From an uncultured Candidatus Saccharibacteria bacterium (GTDB lineage: Bacteria; Patescibacteriota; Doudnabacteria; UBA920), in contig CAZVXT010000001.1 of NCBI GenBank assembly GCA_964631145.1, positions 52,969 to 116,968 on the forward strand: a stretch of 64,000 nt of DNA, in the 5' to 3' direction. Each line of letters starts with the position of its first letter. Position 1 is the stretch's first letter. Position numbers and translations under genes: made by a program. Positions 36,587-52,677 of the stretch are shown here, piece by piece. The notes beneath the pieces are model-generated. The model did no database searches and was not told the DNA's origin. It saw only the letters and a list, made by a program, of their open reading frames with translations.

Positions 36587-37726
36587 ATGAATCAAGACAT
36601 ATTATTACAAATCAATAAAAGCATTGAACAGTCTTCTTCCATTGGAATAGTATTACCTAGCTATGTAACAGTAGATATTTACGCTAGTAGTTTGGCTTTG
36701 CAAAACTGGTTAATTGGTATGGGAAAAACTGTTTTTTTGTATGGAGTGGGTAAGATTCCGCAGTATGAATTTTTTGATAACCCAGAAATACCTTTAGTAA
36801 ACTTTTCTGACAATAACCAACTCCAAATCAGTATTAGTAGTTTAAATGCTACTCCTAGCTCCTTGCGATATGAAAAAACAGAAAATGGCTTAACTGTTTA
36901 TATTAATATTAAAGACGGGCAGATTAAATCTGATGATGTAGTTGTAACTCCTCCAGCTCTAAACCCTGATTTATTATTTTTATTAGACGGAGCTGATTAT
37001 GAAGCATTTGGAGATTTTTATAAAAAAAACGTTGCTGTTATTACAACCACAAAAAAAATTAGCTTAAGCACTAATCCTTCTCATAATTATTTTGCAGCAA
37101 TAAACTTTGTTAATACAGAAGTTTCAAGTTTGAGCGAGCTGGTTTATGATTTAATTGATAGCAAAAATGTTGGTGAATTTAGCGAGCGTGTAGCGACTAA
37201 TTTATTAGCAGGGATAATTTCTCAGACACAAAGTTATAGAAGTAGTAAAACTAATCCTCAAACTTTAAATAAATCTGCAAAACTTATTAGAGCAGGTGCG
37301 CGTCAGCAAGACATTATAAAAGATTTATACAAAACTAAACCTTATAATTTTTTGCAGCTATGGGGAAGAGCTTTAGCAAGAGTTGTGTATTATACAGAAA
37401 ATAATTTTTTGCAAACCACTTTAACAAAACAAGATTTTATAAAAACTTCATTAACTACGCAGGTTATACCTCAAGTTTTGATTGATCTGATAGAAATGTC
37501 TAGTGGTTTTAATATCTTTGCTCTTGTTGTTGAACAGGATTCTGGTGTTAATTTGTATTTAGCAAGTTTGCCTCATGTAAACTTACAAAAATATTTTAAA
37601 GCTTTTGATATAGATTCTGATACAGAACTTTTGCCATTATTTGGTAATTATATTTATACTAGCTTTTTGATTCCCGATTTAGAACTCGCTACTGTAGAGC
37701 AAACTTTAGCAAAAATTAGCTTTTAA
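36587..37726 (+). CDS. Catalytically degenerate DHH/NrnA paralog (pseudo-enzyme)
   Basis: Collinear similarity to the nrnA-like gene at 6865 (SLSELVYDLI vs SVAELVYDFF; ATNLLAGIISQTQ vs AQSLLTGIVTDTG), but the DxD, DHH and GGGH motifs are all absent. Confidence 0.55.
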   Translation: MNQDILLQINKSIEQSSSIGIVLPSYVTVDIYASSLALQNWLIGMGKTVFLYGVGKIPQYEFFDNPEIPLVNFSDNNQLQISISSLNATPSSLRYEKTENGLTVYINIKDGQIKSDDVVVTPPALNPDLLFLLDGADYEAFGDFYKKNVAVITTTKKISLSTNPSHNYFAAINFVNTEVSSLSELVYDLIDSKNVGEFSERVATNLLAGIISQTQSYRSSKTNPQTLNKSAKLIRAGARQQDIIKDLYKTKPYNFLQLWGRALARVVYYTENNFLQTTLTKQDFIKTSLTTQVIPQVLIDLIEMSSGFNIFALVVEQDSGVNLYLASLPHVNLQKYFKAFDIDSDTELLPLFGNYIYTSFLIPDLELATVEQTLAKISF

Positions 37727-42904: not shown

Positions 42905-43894
42905 ATGGATACAGGAGAAATAATAATTTATAAAGATAATAGTGGTCCTCAAATTGAGGTAAATTTTGTTGATGATACTATATGGCTCACCCAGTCGCAG
43001 ATGGCTGATCTGTTTGGTAAAGACATTAGAACTATCTCTGAACATATCAAAAATATCTTTAAAACCGGGGAATTAGCAAAAGATTCAGTTATCCGGAATT
43101 TCCGGATAACTGCAAAAGATGGTAAAAACTATAATACGGCACATTACAATTTAGATATGATAATTTCTGTAGGATATAGAGTTAATTCTAAGCGCGGTAC
43201 TCAGTTTCGTATTTGGGCTACTTCAAAAATTCGAGATTTTTTACTAAAAGGTTATGTAGTAAATAAAAACGTTTTGCAATCTGGTGCTCTTGCAAAAGTT
43301 AAAGAGTTAGAGGGGGCGGTTAGGTTGATTCAATTAGCAATACAAAATAAAAAATTAGAAGGATATGAAAAGGAGGTTTTAGATATTATTACAGATTATG
43401 CTGCAACTTGGACTTTACTATATCAGTACGATGAACAAAAGCTACAACCAGAGCATGTGGTAAAGAAGGTAACTAGAAAATTAGATTATGAACAAGTTAC
43501 AAAATCTATTGATAAATTTCGAGACCGATTACTAAAAGATAAACAGGCTAGCAAGTTATTTGGAAAAGAACAAGATGGTAAGCTCCAGGCATTGTTAGGA
43601 AATATAGAGCAAACTTATGACGGCAAGTCTGTGTATGAAGGTTTTGAACAAAAGGCTGCTCATTTATTATACTTTGCAATTAAGGATCATCCTTTTGCAG
43701 ACGGTAATAAACGAATTGGTTCTTTATTATTTATTTTATACTTAGTAGAAAATGATCGCATTTATAACAAGCGAGGCGATAGAATAATTAATGACAATGC
43801 ATTAACAGCAATTGCATTATTAATTGCAGAAAGTAGTCCCAGTGAAAAAAGCACAATGGTTAATTTAGTGGCAAGTTTGATTGCAAAAAAATAA
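42905..43894 (+). CDS. RhuM-family N-terminal domain fused to a Doc/Fic (death-on-curing type) C-terminal domain
   Basis: C-terminal HPFADGNKRIGS matches the Doc variant of the Fic motif HxFx(D)GNKR; the N-terminal ~200 aa resemble virulence-protein RhuM-family proteins. Confidence 0.7.
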   Translation: MDTGEIIIYKDNSGPQIEVNFVDDTIWLTQSQMADLFGKDIRTISEHIKNIFKTGELAKDSVIRNFRITAKDGKNYNTAHYNLDMIISVGYRVNSKRGTQFRIWATSKIRDFLLKGYVVNKNVLQSGALAKVKELEGAVRLIQLAIQNKKLEGYEKEVLDIITDYAATWTLLYQYDEQKLQPEHVVKKVTRKLDYEQVTKSIDKFRDRLLKDKQASKLFGKEQDGKLQALLGNIEQTYDGKSVYEGFEQKAAHLLYFAIKDHPFADGNKRIGSLLFILYLVENDRIYNKRGDRIINDNALTAIALLIAESSPSEKSTMVNLVASLIAKK

Positions 43895-45071: not shown

Positions 45072-45827
45072 ATGAATAGTAATAAAAGCGAAGCTTTGCA
45101 AGTTGATAATGTTCAGAATAACCTAAAAGCAAAAATTGCAATTCAGGCGTGCGAACAATTGGGTTTTACTGGGTATCTTAGGTATTTTCAAGAAAATAAA
45201 CAAGCTTTGACAAAAGATTTAAACGAAGTAAGTTTAAGTTCGGTTTTAGGTAACGTAGGAATAAATTTTTATCCTGAACAAGCCTTTAATAGAATTATTG
45301 ATGAATATTTTTGGGCTAATTTTAGTAAAGGTAAATTTAATTTATGGTTGCATAACTTAGAAATTAATCACTGGGTAAAATTGTATTTTTCTATATTTTT
45401 ATTATTTTACTCTATATCGTATTATACTCTTCATTCTTATGTATGGGGTAATAATACACCCGCTTGTATTTTGATGTCGTTAATTATTTCATTTTTTGCT
45501 TTTGCCGCAATTAAGGATTTGGTTTTAAATCCAAGAGAAGAAAAAGTAGAAAAGCTAAAAATTAAAAAATCAGATTTAAGTAAAACTAGCCTAGATGTAA
45601 ACCCAGAATTTATTACCATGGCGTTGCAAATTAAATCGTTTGACTCAACTGCGAAATTTAATATTTGCTATTATTATAAAGATTGGGGTATTGATTCAAA
45701 TAAACCTCAATGGCTAGAAGTAACTAATGCTTCTGGAGAAAAGTGTTATATTCCTGAACACGAAGGTGATTGGCAAAATTATTGTGACCTACCTTCATCT
45801 AGTGAACAAGTATTAAATTATTTATAG
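45072..45827 (+). CDS. Novel membrane protein, paralog A of a tandem pair
   Basis: 251 aa; N-terminal soluble domain with ACEQLGFTGYLRYFQENKQ; central TM helices; C-terminal domain MALQIKSFDSTAKFNICYYY; own promoter TTGACT-17-TAAAAT, AGGAGGAA SD and terminator. Confidence 0.55.
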   Translation: MNSNKSEALQVDNVQNNLKAKIAIQACEQLGFTGYLRYFQENKQALTKDLNEVSLSSVLGNVGINFYPEQAFNRIIDEYFWANFSKGKFNLWLHNLEINHWVKLYFSIFLLFYSISYYTLHSYVWGNNTPACILMSLIISFFAFAAIKDLVLNPREEKVEKLKIKKSDLSKTSLDVNPEFITMALQIKSFDSTAKFNICYYYKDWGIDSNKPQWLEVTNASGEKCYIPEHEGDWQNYCDLPSSSEQVLNYL

Positions 45828-45917
45828 TCGACAAGTTCGACTATTTTTTTATTTTCATAGTCTTTACATGACTATTTATAAATGTTAATATTTATAGAAT
45901 TTAAAAAGGAGGAATAT

Positions 45918-46607
45918 ATGAAAACAGATTTAGATTTATTAGATTATAAAAAAACTTTAGCAAAAGAAGCTGCTAATAAGCTTGGATTTAGAGGGTATTT
46001 GCCTCAAGGTAACCAACAAGTTGTTAAGCAAAATTACCCTGAAATTCCATTAATGCCATTACTAACTCAATATGGATTTCCGGTTTATGACCAATGTTTT
46101 TTTAATAATAGAGCCAACCAAATTTTTGAAGAAAATTTAGAACAGGCGGGGTTATTAAAAAAGTATAATTTTAGAAATAAGGTCCAAATAACTTTTAACA
46201 AATGGTTTGTCTTATATCCTTTTTTAATAATAGTTTGTGGACTAGAGTTGTTTTTTGCTTATTTAGTTATAACAACTAACTACGAATCATTGGGAGCGGT
46301 ATGTATGTTATCAGGTATAGTGTTTTTGTTTGTATTGATGATAGTGTTAATGAGATTTGCATTGTTTTTATCCGGAAAAAACTTTCAACACCGTTTTCAT
46401 TCGATGGATCTTAAAAGTTTGAAAAACGACTGGGTTCATCCTATTGTGATTGAAATGGCATTGAAGATTTTTGACCAAGACAATTCTGCTAAATTTGAAG
46501 TTGGATATTTTCTTGACGAAGCACAAAAGCCTGCGAGTCAAAATCAATTTTTGGTAGTTCAGAATTATTATTCCGGTGATCAGAAATATTATATGAAGAT
46601 CACTTAA
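45918..46607 (+). CDS. Novel membrane protein, paralog B of the tandem pair
   Basis: Homologous motifs AANKLGFRGYLPQGNQQ and MALKIFDQDNSAKFEVGYFL; start set at the ATG at 45918 after AAGGAGGAATAT; own terminator at 46609-46641. Confidence 0.55.
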   Translation: MKTDLDLLDYKKTLAKEAANKLGFRGYLPQGNQQVVKQNYPEIPLMPLLTQYGFPVYDQCFFNNRANQIFEENLEQAGLLKKYNFRNKVQITFNKWFVLYPFLIIVCGLELFFAYLVITTNYESLGAVCMLSGIVFLFVLMIVLMRFALFLSGKNFQHRFHSMDLKSLKNDWVHPIVIEMALKIFDQDNSAKFEVGYFLDEAQKPASQNQFLVVQNYYSGDQKYYMKIT

Positions 46608-46656: not shown

Positions 46657-48723
46657 TTACCCCTTCTTTTTTAATTTTTGAATTTTTTTAACTTCGCCAA
46701 TCCTGTCACGTAAGGTAGCGGCGAGTTCAAATTCCAAATTTTGAGCAGCGAGTTCCATTTGGGCTTCTAGTTCATCAATATAAAGTTTTGATTCTTTGCT
46801 GTCCAGCTTGGTGATATCAATAGCTGTATCTGTATTTCCATCAGGCAGGCTTTCTTTACTTCCTGCAAGTCTGCTTTCTGCAATCTTTTTTTGAATGCTC
46901 ACAGGTGTGATACCGTTTGCATTATTATACTCTTCTTGAATTTTTCTGCGTCTTGTTGTTTCATCTATTGCTGCTTTCATGGATTTGGTAATTCGATCGG
47001 CATACATTATTACATGTCCATTCAAATGCCTAGCTGCTCGACCCATAATTTGCATAAACGATGTTTCGCTTCTCAAAAAGCCTTCTTTATCTGCATCCAA
47101 AATTGCTACTAAAGAAACTTCTGGTAAGTCCAGTCCTTCACGTAGAAGATTGATCCCAATTAAACAGTCATAAATTCCTAAACGTAGGTCTCTTAAAATT
47201 TCTAACCTTTCAAATGTATCAACCTCGCTATGAAGATATTGTGCTTTTATACCAGCTTCATTGATATAGGTTGATAATTCTTCTGCCATGCGTTTGGATA
47301 ATGTGGTAACCAAAACACGTTCGTGGTTTTTAATCCGCTCTTTAATTTGCTCTAGGAGGTGATCAACTTGGTTTTTGATTGGACGAATTTCTATGGTTGG
47401 ATCTAGTAACCCTGTCGGACGGTTTATTTGTTGTGCAATAACTGTTTTGGCTAGCTTGTCTGCATCTTTAAAATCATTTTTAGATTGCTTTTTTTTGCCT
47501 ATAATCAAATTTTCTTCAATACACTTTCTTGCTTCATATGGACCTGGTGTTGCAGAGACATACACAGCTTGATTTATCTTGCCTTCAAATTCAGTAAATT
47601 TAAGTGGGCGATTATCCATGGCGCTTGGTAATCGGAATCCGTATTCTACTAATGTTGATTTGCGACTTTTATCGCCTTCGTACATAGCACCGATTTGAGG
47701 AATGGTTTGGTGGGATTCATCGATAAATAGTAAAAAGTCATCAGGGAAATAATCGAGAAGGGTGGATGGAGGGTCTCCAGGTGCTCTTCCGTCAAGGTGT
47801 CTTGAGTAGTTTTCTATACCTGCGACAAAGCCTGTATTATTTAAAATTTCTAAATCGTAATTTGTACGTTGTTCTAATCTTGCAGCTTCTAAAATTTTTC
47901 CATCTTTGCGAAGTTGATTTAGTCTTAGCCTTAATTCTGTGCGTATTGCTTCCATCGCGGATTTCACTTTTTCTTCTGGGGTTACGAAATGTTTGGCTGG
48001 AAAGATTTTAATAGCTTTAAGTTTTTCTAGCAATTCTCCAGAGACCATATGTAATCTTTCAATTTCTTCTAACTCGTCACCAAAAAACTTTAATCTTATA
48101 ATTGTGTCTTCAGAAGCAAGGACGATTTCTAATGTATCTCCTTGTGCTCTAAAAGTTCCGCGCTTTAGATCGTAATCATTGCGGGCATATTGCAAATCAG
48201 TTAAGCGTCTAAGTAGTTTATCTCTTTTGTATGTTTGTCCTGCGGTTAATTCCATGGATAGCTCTAAGTAGTTATCTGGATTGCCTAGTCCGTAGATGCA
48301 AGAGACTGATGCAACAATTAACACATCGCTTCGACTCATTAAAGAGGTTGTCGCTGCGTTGCGAAGCCTATCAATCTCTTCATTAATTTGTGTTTCTTTT
48401 TCTATAAAAGTATCACTACGGGGAATGTATGCTTCCGGTTGATAATAATCATAGTAGGAGACAAAATAATGTACTGCGTTGTCAGGGAAAAATTCTTGAA
48501 ACTCACTAGCTAGCTGCGCTGCTAAAGTTTTGTTGTGACACATTATCAAAGTTGGTTTTTGGATTTTCTCTACAACGCTGGCCATGGTAAAAGTTTTACC
48601 GCTACCTGTAACTCCAAGTAGGGTTTGATGTTTGTATCCAGACTCCAGAGAGTTAACCAAAGTGCTGATTGCTTTTGGTTGGTCTCCTGCTGGGGCAAAT
48701 TTGCTTTTCATCTTAAACTTCAT
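46657..48723 (-). CDS. uvrB: Excinuclease ABC subunit B
   Basis: Walker [13 protein letters not shown], helicase motifs, C-terminal UvrB/UvrC interaction helix. Confidence 0.95.
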
Positions 48724-48756
48724 AGTTCTTGTATTATAGCGAAGTTTCTTACCAAA

Positions 48757-48782
48757 ATAAAAACTGACCTATTTGGTCAGTT
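48757..48782 (-). terminator. Terminator of the small-protein operon
   Basis: AACTGACCTATTTGGTCAGTT hairpin (8-bp stem). Confidence 0.55.
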
Positions 48783-49070
48783 GGTAATTAGAACAATAAT
48801 GCCTAAGTGTTTGCGAGCTATTTGCTCGGCTAATAATATAAGATTATGGTCTGGTGGACAGCCGATAATAATTAAATTTGGGCTTCCTGTATTCTTTACT
48901 GATTCTTCTGGTAAATAAAATTCTGGGATTTTAAAATCAAGTTTTGGTTCTTGATGTTTATTAGCGTCAGAATTTTTATGAGGAAGCCATTTATCGTTTT
49001 TGCCAAATCTCATATTTGTTCTAGATTTGTTAAAATGTTTTGTATTTTTAAAGTTTTGCCTTCTATACAT
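48777..49070 (-). CDS. Hypothetical small basic protein (third gene of a 3-gene accessory operon)
   Basis: 97 aa; N-terminus MYRRQNFKNTKHF shares the RRQNF motif and a 15-nt DNA repeat with the upstream micro-ORF; start overlaps the upstream stop (TAAAATG); GAGGAGG SD. Confidence 0.45.
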   Translation of the reverse strand: MYRRQNFKNTKHFNKSRTNMRFGKNDKWLPHKNSDANKHQEPKLDFKIPEFYLPEESVKNTGSPNLIIIGCPPDHNLILLAEQIARKHLGIIVLITN

Positions 49071-49072
49071 TT

Positions 49073-49215
49073 TACCTCCTCTTTTTATGATGAGATTGGC
49101 GACTTTGCCATATTTGTTTTAAAGATCTAATCGAGTGAGTAATTTTTACAACAGTTAAATAATTAAAAAAGTTTTGCCTTCTACGACGAAAACTTGCAAA
49201 GAAGTGGCTATTCAT
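49073..49215 (-). CDS. Unannotated 47-aa very basic micro-protein
   Basis: Hand translation: MNSHFFASFRRRRQNFFNYLTVVKITHSIRSLKQIWQSRQSHHKKRR; TTGGAGGAAATTATG SD; its last codons encode the next gene's SD. Confidence 0.4.
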
Positions 49216-49281
49216 AATTTCCTCCAAATTAAAAATGAAAAACTTTAATTTTATTGTAACGTAAATGATGCTCCGGTCAAG

Positions 49282-49758
49282 TTAATCTTTAATTATTGAA
49301 ACAGCTTTGGTCTTTCTAACTTGGCTTGGTGCGGTTGCCCATAAAATTACTCCAACGATTTGCAGCACTAATGCTGTAATTAACCATATTTGATAAAAAG
49401 CATTAGGATTCCATAATTTTCCGTATGAAATAAATAACGATATTGCTACTGGTATTACCGCAAAAATATCACAGATGGTTAAATACAATTTGTCATATTT
49501 TAGTTTTGTTCTAAAAATTTCCCAAGGGTCAGATTTTTGTTCAAGAAATTTTCCTAAACGATGAACCATTGTATCTAGTCTGATAATAGAGCCAACAAAA
49601 GCTAATCCAAAAACAATATTCCAACCCGAGAAATAATTATTGTTAAAGATCTCAGCGGTAATGCATAAACCCACACATATTAATCCCAAGACGAAAGCCA
49701 AAATTTTGTGAAATAAGTCATTCACAATAATTTCTAATCTATAACTATTATTTTCCAT
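49282..49758 (-). CDS. Hypothetical 4-TM membrane protein (first gene of the small-protein operon)
   Basis: 158 aa; TAGGAGGATTTATG. Confidence 0.5.
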   Translation of the reverse strand: MENNSYRLEIIVNDLFHKILAFVLGLICVGLCITAEIFNNNYFSGWNIVFGLAFVGSIIRLDTMVHRLGKFLEQKSDPWEIFRTKLKYDKLYLTICDIFAVIPVAISLFISYGKLWNPNAFYQIWLITALVLQIVGVILWATAPSQVRKTKAVSIIKD

Positions 49759-49837
49759 AAATCCTCCTACCTAAATTTTCTGATCATTATAATTAAATTG
49801 TGTTTACTAGTCAAGGTGTCCTTGATATAATTTTTGT

Positions 49838-50791
49838 ATGAATAATGTTATTGAAATTAGTAATTTACGCAAAAAATACAAATTACCAAAACAAGACCAG
49901 CAAAAAAATAAAACCCACTTCGAAGCTGTTAAGGGAATTAATTTTGAAGTAAGACAAGGAGAAGTGTTTGGAATACTTGGTCCTAATGGAGCTGGTAAAA
50001 CAACTACATTAGAAATTATTGAAGGACTTAAGCAGCAATCTGAAGGGAAAGTTTTGGTATTAGGCTTTGATAATATAGATAACGCTGATGATTTAAGGAA
50101 AAATATCGGAGTACAGCTACAGTCCAGTGAGTACATTAACTTAATGACTTTATCGGAGCTTCTAGTATTGTTTGCATCTTTATATAATACGACTGCAAAT
50201 GTGGATCAATTGTTGGGCTTTGTAAATTTACAAGATAAGAAAAATTCTTTAGTAAAAGATTTATCTGGTGGACAAAAGCAAAGATTTACTTTAGCTTCTA
50301 GTTTGGTCAATAATCCAAAAATTTTGTTTTTAGATGAACCTACAACGGGATTGGATCCACGCGCGCGCCATGATATTTGGGCTTTGATTAAGAAAATAAA
50401 TAATCAAGGGGTGACAATAGTTTTGACAACTCATTATATGGAAGAAGCTGAGTATTTGTGTAACCGTGTAGCAATTATGGACGCTGGAAAGATTCTCGCG
50501 ATCAATCATCCAAAAAAGTTAATTGAAGATTTGTCTCATACAACTCAAGTAAGTTTTTTGACAGAAGGTTCTATTAAAGAATCATTATTTGAGAATATTG
50601 CAGAGGTTCAAAAAATATATTCAGAACCTCCAAAAATTATTTTAGAAATATCTAGTCTTAATTGTTTGAGTAATATTGTAGAGACTCTGCAAAATAATCA
50701 AGTTTCGTTTAGCAGTTTTACTGTTAAAACCGCAAGCTTGGAAGATGTATATTTGGATTTAACGGGTAAGTCATTTGAACAAATAAATTAA
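49838..50791 (+). CDS. ABC transporter ATP-binding protein (ABC-2 exporter type)
   Basis: Walker A GPNGAGKTTT, signature LSGGQKQR, Walker B ILFLDEPTTGLD. Confidence 0.9.
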   Translation: MNNVIEISNLRKKYKLPKQDQQKNKTHFEAVKGINFEVRQGEVFGILGPNGAGKTTTLEIIEGLKQQSEGKVLVLGFDNIDNADDLRKNIGVQLQSSEYINLMTLSELLVLFASLYNTTANVDQLLGFVNLQDKKNSLVKDLSGGQKQRFTLASSLVNNPKILFLDEPTTGLDPRARHDIWALIKKINNQGVTIVLTTHYMEEAEYLCNRVAIMDAGKILAINHPKKLIEDLSHTTQVSFLTEGSIKESLFENIAEVQKIYSEPPKIILEISSLNCLSNIVETLQNNQVSFSSFTVKTASLEDVYLDLTGKSFEQIN

Positions 50792-50795
50792 CTTT

Positions 50796-51542
50796 ATGAA
50801 CTCTAGTTTTTATCAATTATTTTTAATGAATTGGCGTTTGCTGTATCGCAATAGAACCGGGTTGTTTTTTACTTTGGCTATGCCTTTAATTATTTTTACT
50901 GCACTTTCTATTTTGGCAATTAGTAGGTTTATTCAAGGCGGCATCAATTATTCTCAATATATTTTACCTGGAATTATTGCGATGACAATAATGCAAGGTG
51001 GTATTTATAGCCTTGCATATTGGATGATAGATTTAAAATCTCGCAATGTTATTAAACGCTTTTTAGTTACTCCACTAAAGACAAAAGATTTAATTAGTAG
51101 CGTACTTCTTAGTAGAATTTTAGTTGCTGTATTGCAAGCAATATTTTTAACAGCAGTGGGTGCTTTGTTTTTTGGAATCGACTTAAAGTTAAACATGGTA
51201 TTTGCTTTTATATTTATTATTTTGGGAGCATCAATATTTTTGCTCGCTGGATTATTAATTTCTACTATCGCTGATACTTACGAAGCCGCTGCGCCAATTA
51301 CTTCGGTAGTCGGATTGCCTTTAACTTTTTTGGGAAATATTTTTTATCCAATTGATGGATTACCTATTGCTCTTAAAAAATTTGCAGAAGTCTTGCCAAT
51401 TACATATATGGCGGATGGTATAAGACAATCGTTTTTCGGTAATCCTACATGGAGCAGTGTGGGCTTTAATATTTTAATTTTAATGGCTTGGTTGGTATTT
51501 ATGATTTTGATTACTTTCAGAGTGTTCAAATTAAAGGAGTAG
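50796..51542 (+). CDS. ABC-2 family transporter permease
   Basis: 248 aa, 6 predicted TM helices, adjacent to the ATPase. Confidence 0.8.
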   Translation: MNSSFYQLFLMNWRLLYRNRTGLFFTLAMPLIIFTALSILAISRFIQGGINYSQYILPGIIAMTIMQGGIYSLAYWMIDLKSRNVIKRFLVTPLKTKDLISSVLLSRILVAVLQAIFLTAVGALFFGIDLKLNMVFAFIFIILGASIFLLAGLLISTIADTYEAAAPITSVVGLPLTFLGNIFYPIDGLPIALKKFAEVLPITYMADGIRQSFFGNPTWSSVGFNILILMAWLVFMILITFRVFKLKE

Positions 51543-52281: not shown

Positions 52282-52677
52282 TTACGCTTTTTTCTTTTTT
52301 GCTTTTGTTATATTTGGTTTTTGACCATAGTGCAGCTTTATGTTTTTAGAAGGTTCTGATTTATCTAACTTCAAAAAATTTTCAACCACTTTATTATTAG
52401 GCAAAACTATTACTGGGATATTTAATCCAAGTGCAAGGCTTTGTCCCAAAGCTGTTCCAACTCTAATCCCTGTAAAAGACCCTGGTCCGCTGGCGGTAAT
52501 AATTTTTGATATTTGATTAAACTTAAGTTTGTTGGATTTTAAAAACCTTTCTAGTAACTCTAAAGTTTTGTAGTTCTCATTAAAGGCTATCTCAAAAGTT
52601 TGTTTAATGATTTTTTCTTTGGATACGATTTTAAATTCTGCCTGTCCAAAATTAGTTGTATTGATAACTAAAATCAT
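52282..52677 (-). CDS. tsaB: tRNA t6A biosynthesis protein TsaB (N-terminal-domain-only short form)
   Basis: ITASGPGSFTGIRVGTALGQSLALGLNIPVIVL is the TsaB/YeaZ signature; only 131 aa. Confidence 0.75.
   Translation of the reverse strand: MILVINTTNFGQAEFKIVSKEKIIKQTFEIAFNENYKTLELLERFLKSNKLKFNQISKIITASGPGSFTGIRVGTALGQSLALGLNIPVIVLPNNKVVENFLKLDKSEPSKNIKLHYGQKPNITKAKKKKA

Follow-up and report, generated by a model that had tools for sequence, protein, structure and literature searches.

What are the two short open reading frames (ORFs) that lie between a conserved ABC-2 exporter and uvrB in the genome of an uncultured Candidatus Saccharibacteria bacterium (GTDB lineage Bacteria; Patescibacteriota; Doudnabacteria; UBA920)? 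The locus is part of a stretch of 64,000 nucleotides (nt) (assembly GCA_964631145.1, contig CAZVXT010000001.1, positions 52,969 to 116,968), which we call the window and to which all coordinates refer; the contig that carries it is 654 kb long. A preliminary description, made from the sequence alone, had read a gene for a membrane protein with four transmembrane (TM) segments, a 47-codon ORF (orf47) and a 97-codon ORF (orf97), all on the minus strand, as one three-gene accessory operon, and had named nucleic-acid binders, toxin/antitoxin components and membrane-active peptides as possible roles for the two small, basic products. Our analysis leads to a different and tentative answer, to which we assign a probability of about 0.45: the segment from 49281 to ~48752 would be a young, species-restricted transcription unit that holds an orphan gene, orf97, preceded by orf47 in a position suited to translational coupling. 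This segment of ~500 bases was found in one species only, and orf97 looks protein-coding by its length, by codon tests and by independent gene calls. The unit is made up as follows.

49253..49280, minus strand: promoter-like sequence TTGACC-16-TACAAT, starting 2 nt after the stop codon of the membrane-protein gene; 10 of 12 consensus matches.
49072..49215 (stop included), minus strand: orf47, 47 codons, with the Shine-Dalgarno (SD) sequence GGAGG at 49221-49225, 5 nt before the ATG.
49168..49183, minus strand: first copy of a 16-nt direct repeat, TAGAAGGCAAAACTTT, in codons 11-16 of orf47; RRQNF forms residues 12-16.
49075..49080, minus strand: AGGAGG, the SD sequence of orf97, formed by the final two codons of orf47 and separated from the orf97 ATG by 4 nt.
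48777..49070, minus strand: orf97, 97 amino acids, with GGAGG 4 nt before the ATG.
49050..49065, minus strand: second copy of the repeat, TAGAAGGCAAAACTTT, in codons 2-7 of orf97; RRQNF forms residues 3-7.
48752..48782, minus strand: intrinsic-terminator-like hairpin AACTGACC-AAATA-GGTCAGTT followed by a T-run; the TGA of orf97 lies in its 5' arm.

The three ORFs were thus found where they had been placed, apart from the end of orf47, which is 49072 and had been given one base off as 49073. All three are preceded by a GGAGG, as described, at distances of 4, 5 and 4 nt from the respective ATG codons.

Two coding models, whose training set consisted of the other 56 of 57 long ORFs in the window, were applied to the small frames and agreed with each other. 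For orf97 the codon log-likelihood ratio was 0.185 per codon, compared with 0.23 ± 0.086 for real 97-codon segments and with spurious ORFs, whose 95th percentile is 0.146. Its score in the 3-periodic Markov model was 0.11 per codon; the corresponding values are 0.174 ± 0.071 for real segments and -0.457 (99th percentile -0.20) for off-frame ones. The orf97 frame outscored the other five by a wide margin. The gap between the membrane-protein gene and uvrB measures 558 nt, and the probability of any ORF of at least 97 codons in the six frames of simulated sequences of this length was ~0.01. Gene calls made independently on Logan contigs of the organism, from two separate assemblies (loci L001 and L002), include orf97 and omit orf47, in agreement with the earlier statement that orf47 is unannotated. 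The genetic code is standard, since TGA closes 4 of 56 long ORFs of the window; together with the absence of in-frame TGA codons from uvrB, this excluded a code in which TGA is read as a sense codon.

The orf97 product has an isoelectric point (pI) of 9.8. Its N-terminal 46 residues are basic (pI 10.5), the C-terminal half is near neutral, and neither a hydrophobic window nor a TM-like segment was detected. In a single-sequence AlphaFold2 (AF2) model, residues 1 to ~60 are disordered and are followed by a strand-helix-strand arrangement (strand 66-70, helix 75-88, strand 91-95). The protein would accordingly combine a disordered N-terminal stretch of ~60 residues, rich in Lys, Arg and Asn, with a short C-terminal beta-alpha-beta module. 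We can only guess, with low confidence, that the basic tail might bind a polyanion such as nucleic acid and that the beta-alpha-beta module might serve self-association.

Homology searches gave no relative of either small ORF. A word-indexed search of 5.8 billion protein clusters with orf97 returned only the protein itself, and when 1.84 billion representatives were searched exhaustively with phmmer, a single protein of 5869 residues (P0003) was added. We rejected the latter as spurious because a short motif, G-P-x-III-x-PPDHN, recurs about 20 times and inflates the score. In Pfam, NCBIfam and PADLOC nothing was obtained for orf97 up to E = 1 and only noise for orf47, and PHROGs was empty for both. 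Viral contigs, phage records and JGI metagenome contigs likewise contained no relative of orf47 or orf97, and tblastn with both against the 84 related loci described below yielded zero signal. Foldseek with the orf97 model against the PDB returned generic beta-alpha-beta matches only (best E 0.63). A beta-carbonic anhydrase (6yjn_A) was considered for orf97 and dismissed: the best E value in a PDB sequence search was 0.45 with no stretch passing, Pfam Pro_CA did not match, and GCPPD stands where the aligned beta-carbonic anhydrase chain has GCSDSR, the zinc motif being CxDxR. Small basic ribosomal proteins such as bL34 and bL36 were set aside for both ORFs in view of the lack of any ribosomal match in Pfam or NCBIfam. 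The earlier remark that no family is recognizable for the small ORFs therefore stands after all sequence and profile searches. Being free of homologues outside the species, orf97 has the defining feature of a taxonomically restricted orphan gene; as for coding capacity, which is also expected of such a gene, orf97 would pass by length and codon tests and orf47 would fail by both.

The surroundings of the unit were compared with 80 uvrB loci from GTDB species representatives and with four loci of the closest UvrB proteins, 84 in total. The features that frame the unit in the window are these.

49838-51542, divergent from the membrane-protein gene, orf47 and orf97: ABC_tran ATPase and ABC2_membrane permease pair, assigned by Pfam.
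49786..49814, minus strand: promoter-like sequence TTGACT-17-TATAAT upstream of the membrane-protein gene; 11 of 12 consensus matches.
49282..49758, minus strand: gene for the putative four-TM protein, 158 amino acids, defined by its ORF and by hydropathy; GGAGG 4 nt before the ATG.
48733..48738, minus strand: TATAAT box read from the sequence, ending 9 nt before the uvrB ATG.
46657-48723, minus strand: uvrB, downstream of orf97 on the same strand.

The neighboring ABC-2 exporter of the preliminary description was confirmed by the ABC_tran and ABC2_membrane matches. By its UvrB the organism belongs to Patescibacteria (CPR). The closest UvrB proteins found anywhere are only 81% identical to that of the window, and the relatives compared range from 73 to 81%. 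The gene order around uvrB is conserved and reads Mur ligase, TsaB, small membrane protein, ABC-2 permease, ABC ATPase, a slot, and uvrB; beyond uvrB, S20 and polA come next in L083-L085, the three closest loci. The slot between the divergent exporter and uvrB (48724-49837 in the window) is hypervariable at this level of UvrB identity, as seen in loci L003-L013, L031, L045 and L083-L086. It is without a gene in L085, L012 and L013, holds a small single-TM protein of the type 'MYHD...NRSGGFF' in L004, L009 and L045, the same protein plus a homologue of the 158-residue membrane protein in L007 and L011, the homologue alone in L006, an unrelated membrane protein of 160 residues in L086 and two opposite-strand genes in L083. 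Across the relatives, then, it is either empty or occupied by small proteins, membrane-bound or secreted, that are unrelated and encoded on either strand. The whole segment with orf47 and orf97 is missing from all relatives examined, which bears out the view that the small ORFs are accessory. In our proposal the unit would sit in this hypervariable slot, between the conserved exporter together with the membrane-protein gene on one side and uvrB on the other.

The membrane-protein gene itself, unlike the small ORFs, has counterparts in relatives. Hydropathy analysis of the 158-residue protein revealed three strong hydrophobic segments (Kyte-Doolittle average over 19 residues, KD19, > 1.6) and a weaker one at residues 44-60 that stays below this threshold, so that of the four TM segments originally proposed three are clear and the fourth is plausible. 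The codon score of the gene is gene-like. No Pfam or NCBIfam family was found at cutoff, PHROGs and PADLOC were empty, and the 5.8 billion protein clusters contained only a self-match. With tblastn, however, homologues covering residues 3-154 at 34-41% identity were detected among the related loci in L007 (6441-6899, E 9e-29), L011 (3013-3480, E 1e-27) and L006 (6317-6910, E 2e-16). All three lie in the same orientation between the ABC-2 exporter and uvrB and end 90-101 nt before uvrB, and the short interval holds only a terminator and the uvrB promoter, without orf47 or orf97. By full-length similarity and conserved position the gene of the window thus belongs to an unnamed four-TM family located upstream of uvrB. 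This likeness is limited to the membrane gene, and the small ORFs are not part of the family's setting. In two of the relatives a 'MYHD...NRSGGFF' protein precedes the four-TM homologue, and there is none in the locus studied here.

The 'MYHD' proteins form a fast-evolving family of ~80 residues with an N-terminal MY(H/D)D, a Pro-rich middle, one TM helix and a C-terminal NRSGGFF. Their genes (L004 6720-6992, L007 6146-6382, L009 6747-6980, L010 6091-6342, L011 2709-2969 and L045 6747-6992) directly follow the ABC ATPase in the relatives; the slot of the window has no such gene. orf97 was considered as a member and rejected, with a probability of 0.2% in an hhalign comparison to a six-sequence profile and no TM helix. 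Elsewhere in the window, positions 37367-37510, within an ORF of 379 codons (36587-37726, plus strand) that has no Pfam family, gave a tblastn match to the family member from L045 (E 4e-5), which could reflect a related Pro-rich/TM segment or composition.

If the small ORFs are foreign to the setting of the membrane gene, are they transcribed with it? In the relatives, the membrane gene is kept beside uvrB in loci that lack the small ORFs, and in the window a promoter-like site lies between it and orf47; in view of both observations, the single three-gene operon that had been proposed is not supported. From this site we derive the possibility that orf47 and orf97 may form a transcription unit separate from the membrane gene. 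The sequence at 49253-49280 is the candidate promoter of this unit, and transcription would start near 49246. At the other end, the terminator reported for orf97 was recovered at 48782-48762 as a hairpin with an 8-bp stem and a T-run that overlaps the TGA. A scan for minus-strand terminator-like sites between orf47 and orf97 returned none. The promoter-like sites are suggestive only because they are consensus matches in AT-rich DNA, where 10 sites were found and 6.5 ± 2.8 were expected. The proposed unit would therefore consist of a sigma-70-type promoter directly after the membrane gene, orf47, orf97 and an intrinsic terminator overlapping the orf97 stop codon, with transcription presumably driven from the internal promoter. 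The TATAAT at 48733-48738 marks the boundary of this unit and is probably the promoter of a leaderless uvrB mRNA.

The position of orf47 gives this unit its particular character. The deduced product, MNSHFFASFRRRRQNFFNYLTVVKITHSIRSLKQIWQSRQSHHKKRR, has a pI of 12.0, which agrees with the earlier estimate of well above 11, a net charge of +12 and neither Asp nor Glu. Its single-sequence AF2 model is one long helix (predicted local distance difference test score, pLDDT, 79), the helical hydrophobic moment is at most 0.43, and a hydrophobic segment is lacking. The frame is opened behind a strong SD sequence and closes right at the start of orf97. It had been stated that the orf47 stop and the orf97 start overlap; the sequence is TAA-A-ATG, with one spacer base. 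The accompanying statement that the SD sequence of orf97 is contained in the final codons of orf47 is correct, as AAA AAG AGG AGG includes AGGAGG. With the SD sequence of the downstream gene inside the upstream frame and the stop codon 1 nt before the next ATG, the geometry needed for termination-reinitiation is present. Ribosomes loading at the orf47 SD sequence would end translation 1 nt short of the orf97 ATG and directly over the orf97 SD sequence, a placement that would favor coupled initiation. If orf47 acts at all, it would most likely do so via its own translation.

Classical examples of translationally coupled pairs are trpE-trpD and trpB-trpA. The placement of the orf97 SD sequence within the last two codons of orf47 and of the stop 1 nt before the ATG is the feature shared with such pairs. 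In contrast to them, no attenuator terminator lies between the ORFs, and the orf97 SD sequence shows no sign of structural occlusion: the minimum free energy of the leader fold (-35.3 kcal/mol; shuffled sequences -30.3 ± 4.0) corresponds to z = -1.24 and is not significant. As an Rfam scan also gave no match, a structured RNA or riboswitch was dismissed. Similarly, a short ORF between a predicted promoter and the orf97 ATG resembles a regulatory leader or attenuator, but alternative structures as known from attenuators were not indicated by the fold, the terminator scan or Rfam. No conserved arrest or sensing motif was recognized in orf47, for which the 84 loci offer no homologous leaders. Recoding between the frames was discarded on inspection, since a -1 slip on U-AAA-AAG would miss the orf97 frame and no re-pairing codon is available for a +1 shift at AGG-UAA.

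The strongest competing reading takes orf97 as the only gene of a monocistronic unit and orf47 as a chance frame in a 5' leader of ~175 nt, untranslated or translated without consequence. The length of orf47 is not beyond chance, because ~50% of the simulated 558-nt sequences held an ORF of at least 47 codons in one of the six frames. Its codon scores of -0.037 and -0.079 per codon in the two models are lower than the 1st percentile for real segments of 47 codons, and neither gene call includes it. Three points argue the other way. The orf47 frame is still the top-scoring of its six frames; its stop codon lies 1 nt before the next ATG; and a GGAGG stands 5 nt before its own ATG, a sequence that occurs only 47 times on both strands of the window (128 kb), 19 of these before ORFs of at least 40 codons. 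By a rough estimate, a 200-nt leader would combine an SD sequence, an ATG and 47 open codons by chance with a probability of <1e-3. The status of orf47 as a gene is thus ambiguous between an upstream ORF coupled to orf97 and a leader frame that is open by chance, and we regard the monocistronic alternative as unlikely.

Several findings weigh against the coupled orphan unit that we favor. The codon statistics of orf47 are like those of non-coding DNA, and its length is within chance. The AF2 model of orf97 is modest, with a mean pLDDT of 60 and ~75 over the last 30 residues, and the lone C-terminal beta-alpha-beta element predicted there could mean that orf97 is what is left of a longer gene. 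The three assemblies available for the organism agree at 100% identity over 10.3 kb, which leaves no variation from which constraint or a ratio of non-synonymous to synonymous substitution rates (dN/dS) could be derived. Finally, promoter and terminator are consensus matches only, and promoter-like sites are barely enriched in the region.

Could the two ORFs be parts of one broken gene? The preliminary description had noted an RRQNF motif shared by the two products and encoded by a direct DNA repeat of 15 nt. We found the repeat to be exact and 16 nt long, with the copies 118 nt apart; as many matches were not obtained in any of 100 shuffled versions of the window. RRQNF is encoded in identical codon phase in orf47 and orf97. 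The flanks of the two copies could not be aligned, as 216 of 2000 shuffles scored equally well. A long, diverged tandem duplication around the 16-mer was thereby ruled out, and since its flanks fail to align the 16-mer is not the core of a longer or old duplication. The combination of exact 16-mers and unrelated flanks suggests a junction-type event of recent date, and deletion of one copy together with the intervening 102 nt would leave a single in-frame ORF of 106 codons, which scores 0.085 per codon.

These observations are compatible with a split or decaying gene, in which an ancestor of ~106 codons starting at the orf47 ATG would have been cut by a 102-nt insertion accompanied by a 16-nt duplication; the insertion would have carried, or later gained, the SD sequence and ATG at which orf97, the downstream part, now starts. 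In a variant of this reading, orf97 would be the 5' stump of a gene whose 3' part has been deleted. Exact copies between unrelated flanks are what a junction duplication leaves behind and an old tandem duplication does not, the perfect agreement of the copies suggests a recent event, and the incomplete-looking beta-alpha-beta unit at the modeled end of orf97 is situated right at the terminator. A split-gene origin is possible because both copies share one codon phase, such that removal of one copy and of the 102 nt restores one frame; however, this phase match has a chance of 1 in 3. A target duplication of 16 nt would be unusually long, no terminal inverted repeats were seen in the 102-nt piece, and none of the databases searched contained a full-length relative, whether of the fusion ORF or of an extended orf97. 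A mobile element was rejected as the identity of the 102-nt piece, for which neither the window nor any locus fetched contains a second copy. On balance, we consider a split or decaying gene improbable.

Next in order comes the proposal that neither small ORF is functional and that the ~500 bp, filler without coding function or what remains of a lost gene, contain open frames by chance. The complete lack of homologues, the absence of the segment from all relatives examined and the failure to detect an RNA family or significant RNA structure (z = -1.24) speak for this proposal. Against it stand the length of orf97 (P ~0.01) and the fact that just one of its six frames has the codon statistics of a gene, as well as two well-placed SD boxes and a terminator located exactly at the orf97 stop codon. 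Genomes of ~0.65 Mb, moreover, seldom retain 500 bp of filler. We think it quite improbable that the segment is filler.

There is a slim chance that a gene pair has been caught early in its origin with both products functional, either as a de novo or very young bicistron or as a 106-codon ORF that has only just been split. If true, a helical micro-protein of charge +12 and a basic beta-alpha-beta protein, for example as a new nucleic-acid-binding or addiction module, would occur together in one episymbiotic Patescibacteria species.

Least probable is a toxin-antitoxin-like addiction or defense module: two small adjacent ORFs, 1 nt apart and in coupling geometry between their own promoter-like and terminator-like sites, do resemble a type II toxin-antitoxin pair, and a hypervariable slot is typical of accessory modules, but the reading is unsupported because no toxin, antitoxin or defense model in Pfam, NCBIfam or PADLOC matched, both products are basic and only one species has the pair, to which are added the weak coding signal of orf47, the lack of a detectable DNA-binding domain and the absence of any of the known superfamilies (RelE/ParE, MazF, VapC/PIN, HicA, Phd, RHH, HTH, AbrB; best E in the PDB 0.45). 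Of the roles suggested earlier, toxin/antitoxin components thus found no backing, and the same holds for membrane-active peptides, as neither product is hydrophobic or strongly amphipathic.

How does a coupled orphan unit of this kind fit into what is known of the group? Orphan gene clusters confined to one species abound in Patescibacteria, for which one survey lists 45,788 species-level clusters of unknown function (PMC9132574). The AGNOSTOS-type orphan genes of that survey resemble orf97 in being confined to a single species, small, situated in a variable slot of a reduced genome and, for orf97, in host-like codon usage. They form a category rather than a family and are silent on function; the exact 16-nt repeat and the upstream ORF in coupled position are particular to the present locus. 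The unit is an ordinary lineage-specific gene and not a recognizable new system. If expressed, orf97, and perhaps orf47, would be one more species-restricted small protein in the large pool of Patescibacteria proteins of unknown function, and the conserved frame of ABC-2 exporter, variable slot and uvrB would amount to a natural experiment on the gain and loss of small genes. As the evidence stands, the locus neatly exemplifies an orphan gene in a well-framed variable slot and leaves the general picture unchanged.

With regard to the downstream border of the slot, uvrB has no SD sequence. A TATAAT-type -10 element ends 4-9 nt before its ATG in the window (48721-48738) and in relatives, where the motif CTATATAATA...ATG is located at ~4985-5003 in L086, L083 and L085 and at ~6985-7003 in L009. 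This arrangement suggests that a leaderless uvrB mRNA is conserved in this clade of Patescibacteria. The TATAAT was missed by our promoter scan because it has no good -35 box.

Some other genes of the window deserve mention. Two adjacent plus-strand genes, 45072-45827 and 45882-46607, are mutual paralogues with 26% identity over ~235 residues; neither has a Pfam match above cutoff, and a sub-threshold SUR7 match was obtained for the second gene only. Further upstream, 42905-43894 (plus strand) encodes a protein of 329 residues with RhuM (PF13310) and Fic/DOC (PF02661) domains, which is likely an accessory or mobile-type gene in this genome of ~0.65 Mb; the gene call has 267 residues on L001 and 329 on L002. 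On the far side of the exporter, the TsaB-like protein encoded at 52282-52677 (minus strand) comprises just 131 residues with a TsaD-family Pfam match of ~54 residues, and its counterparts in the relatives are likewise short (127-136 residues).

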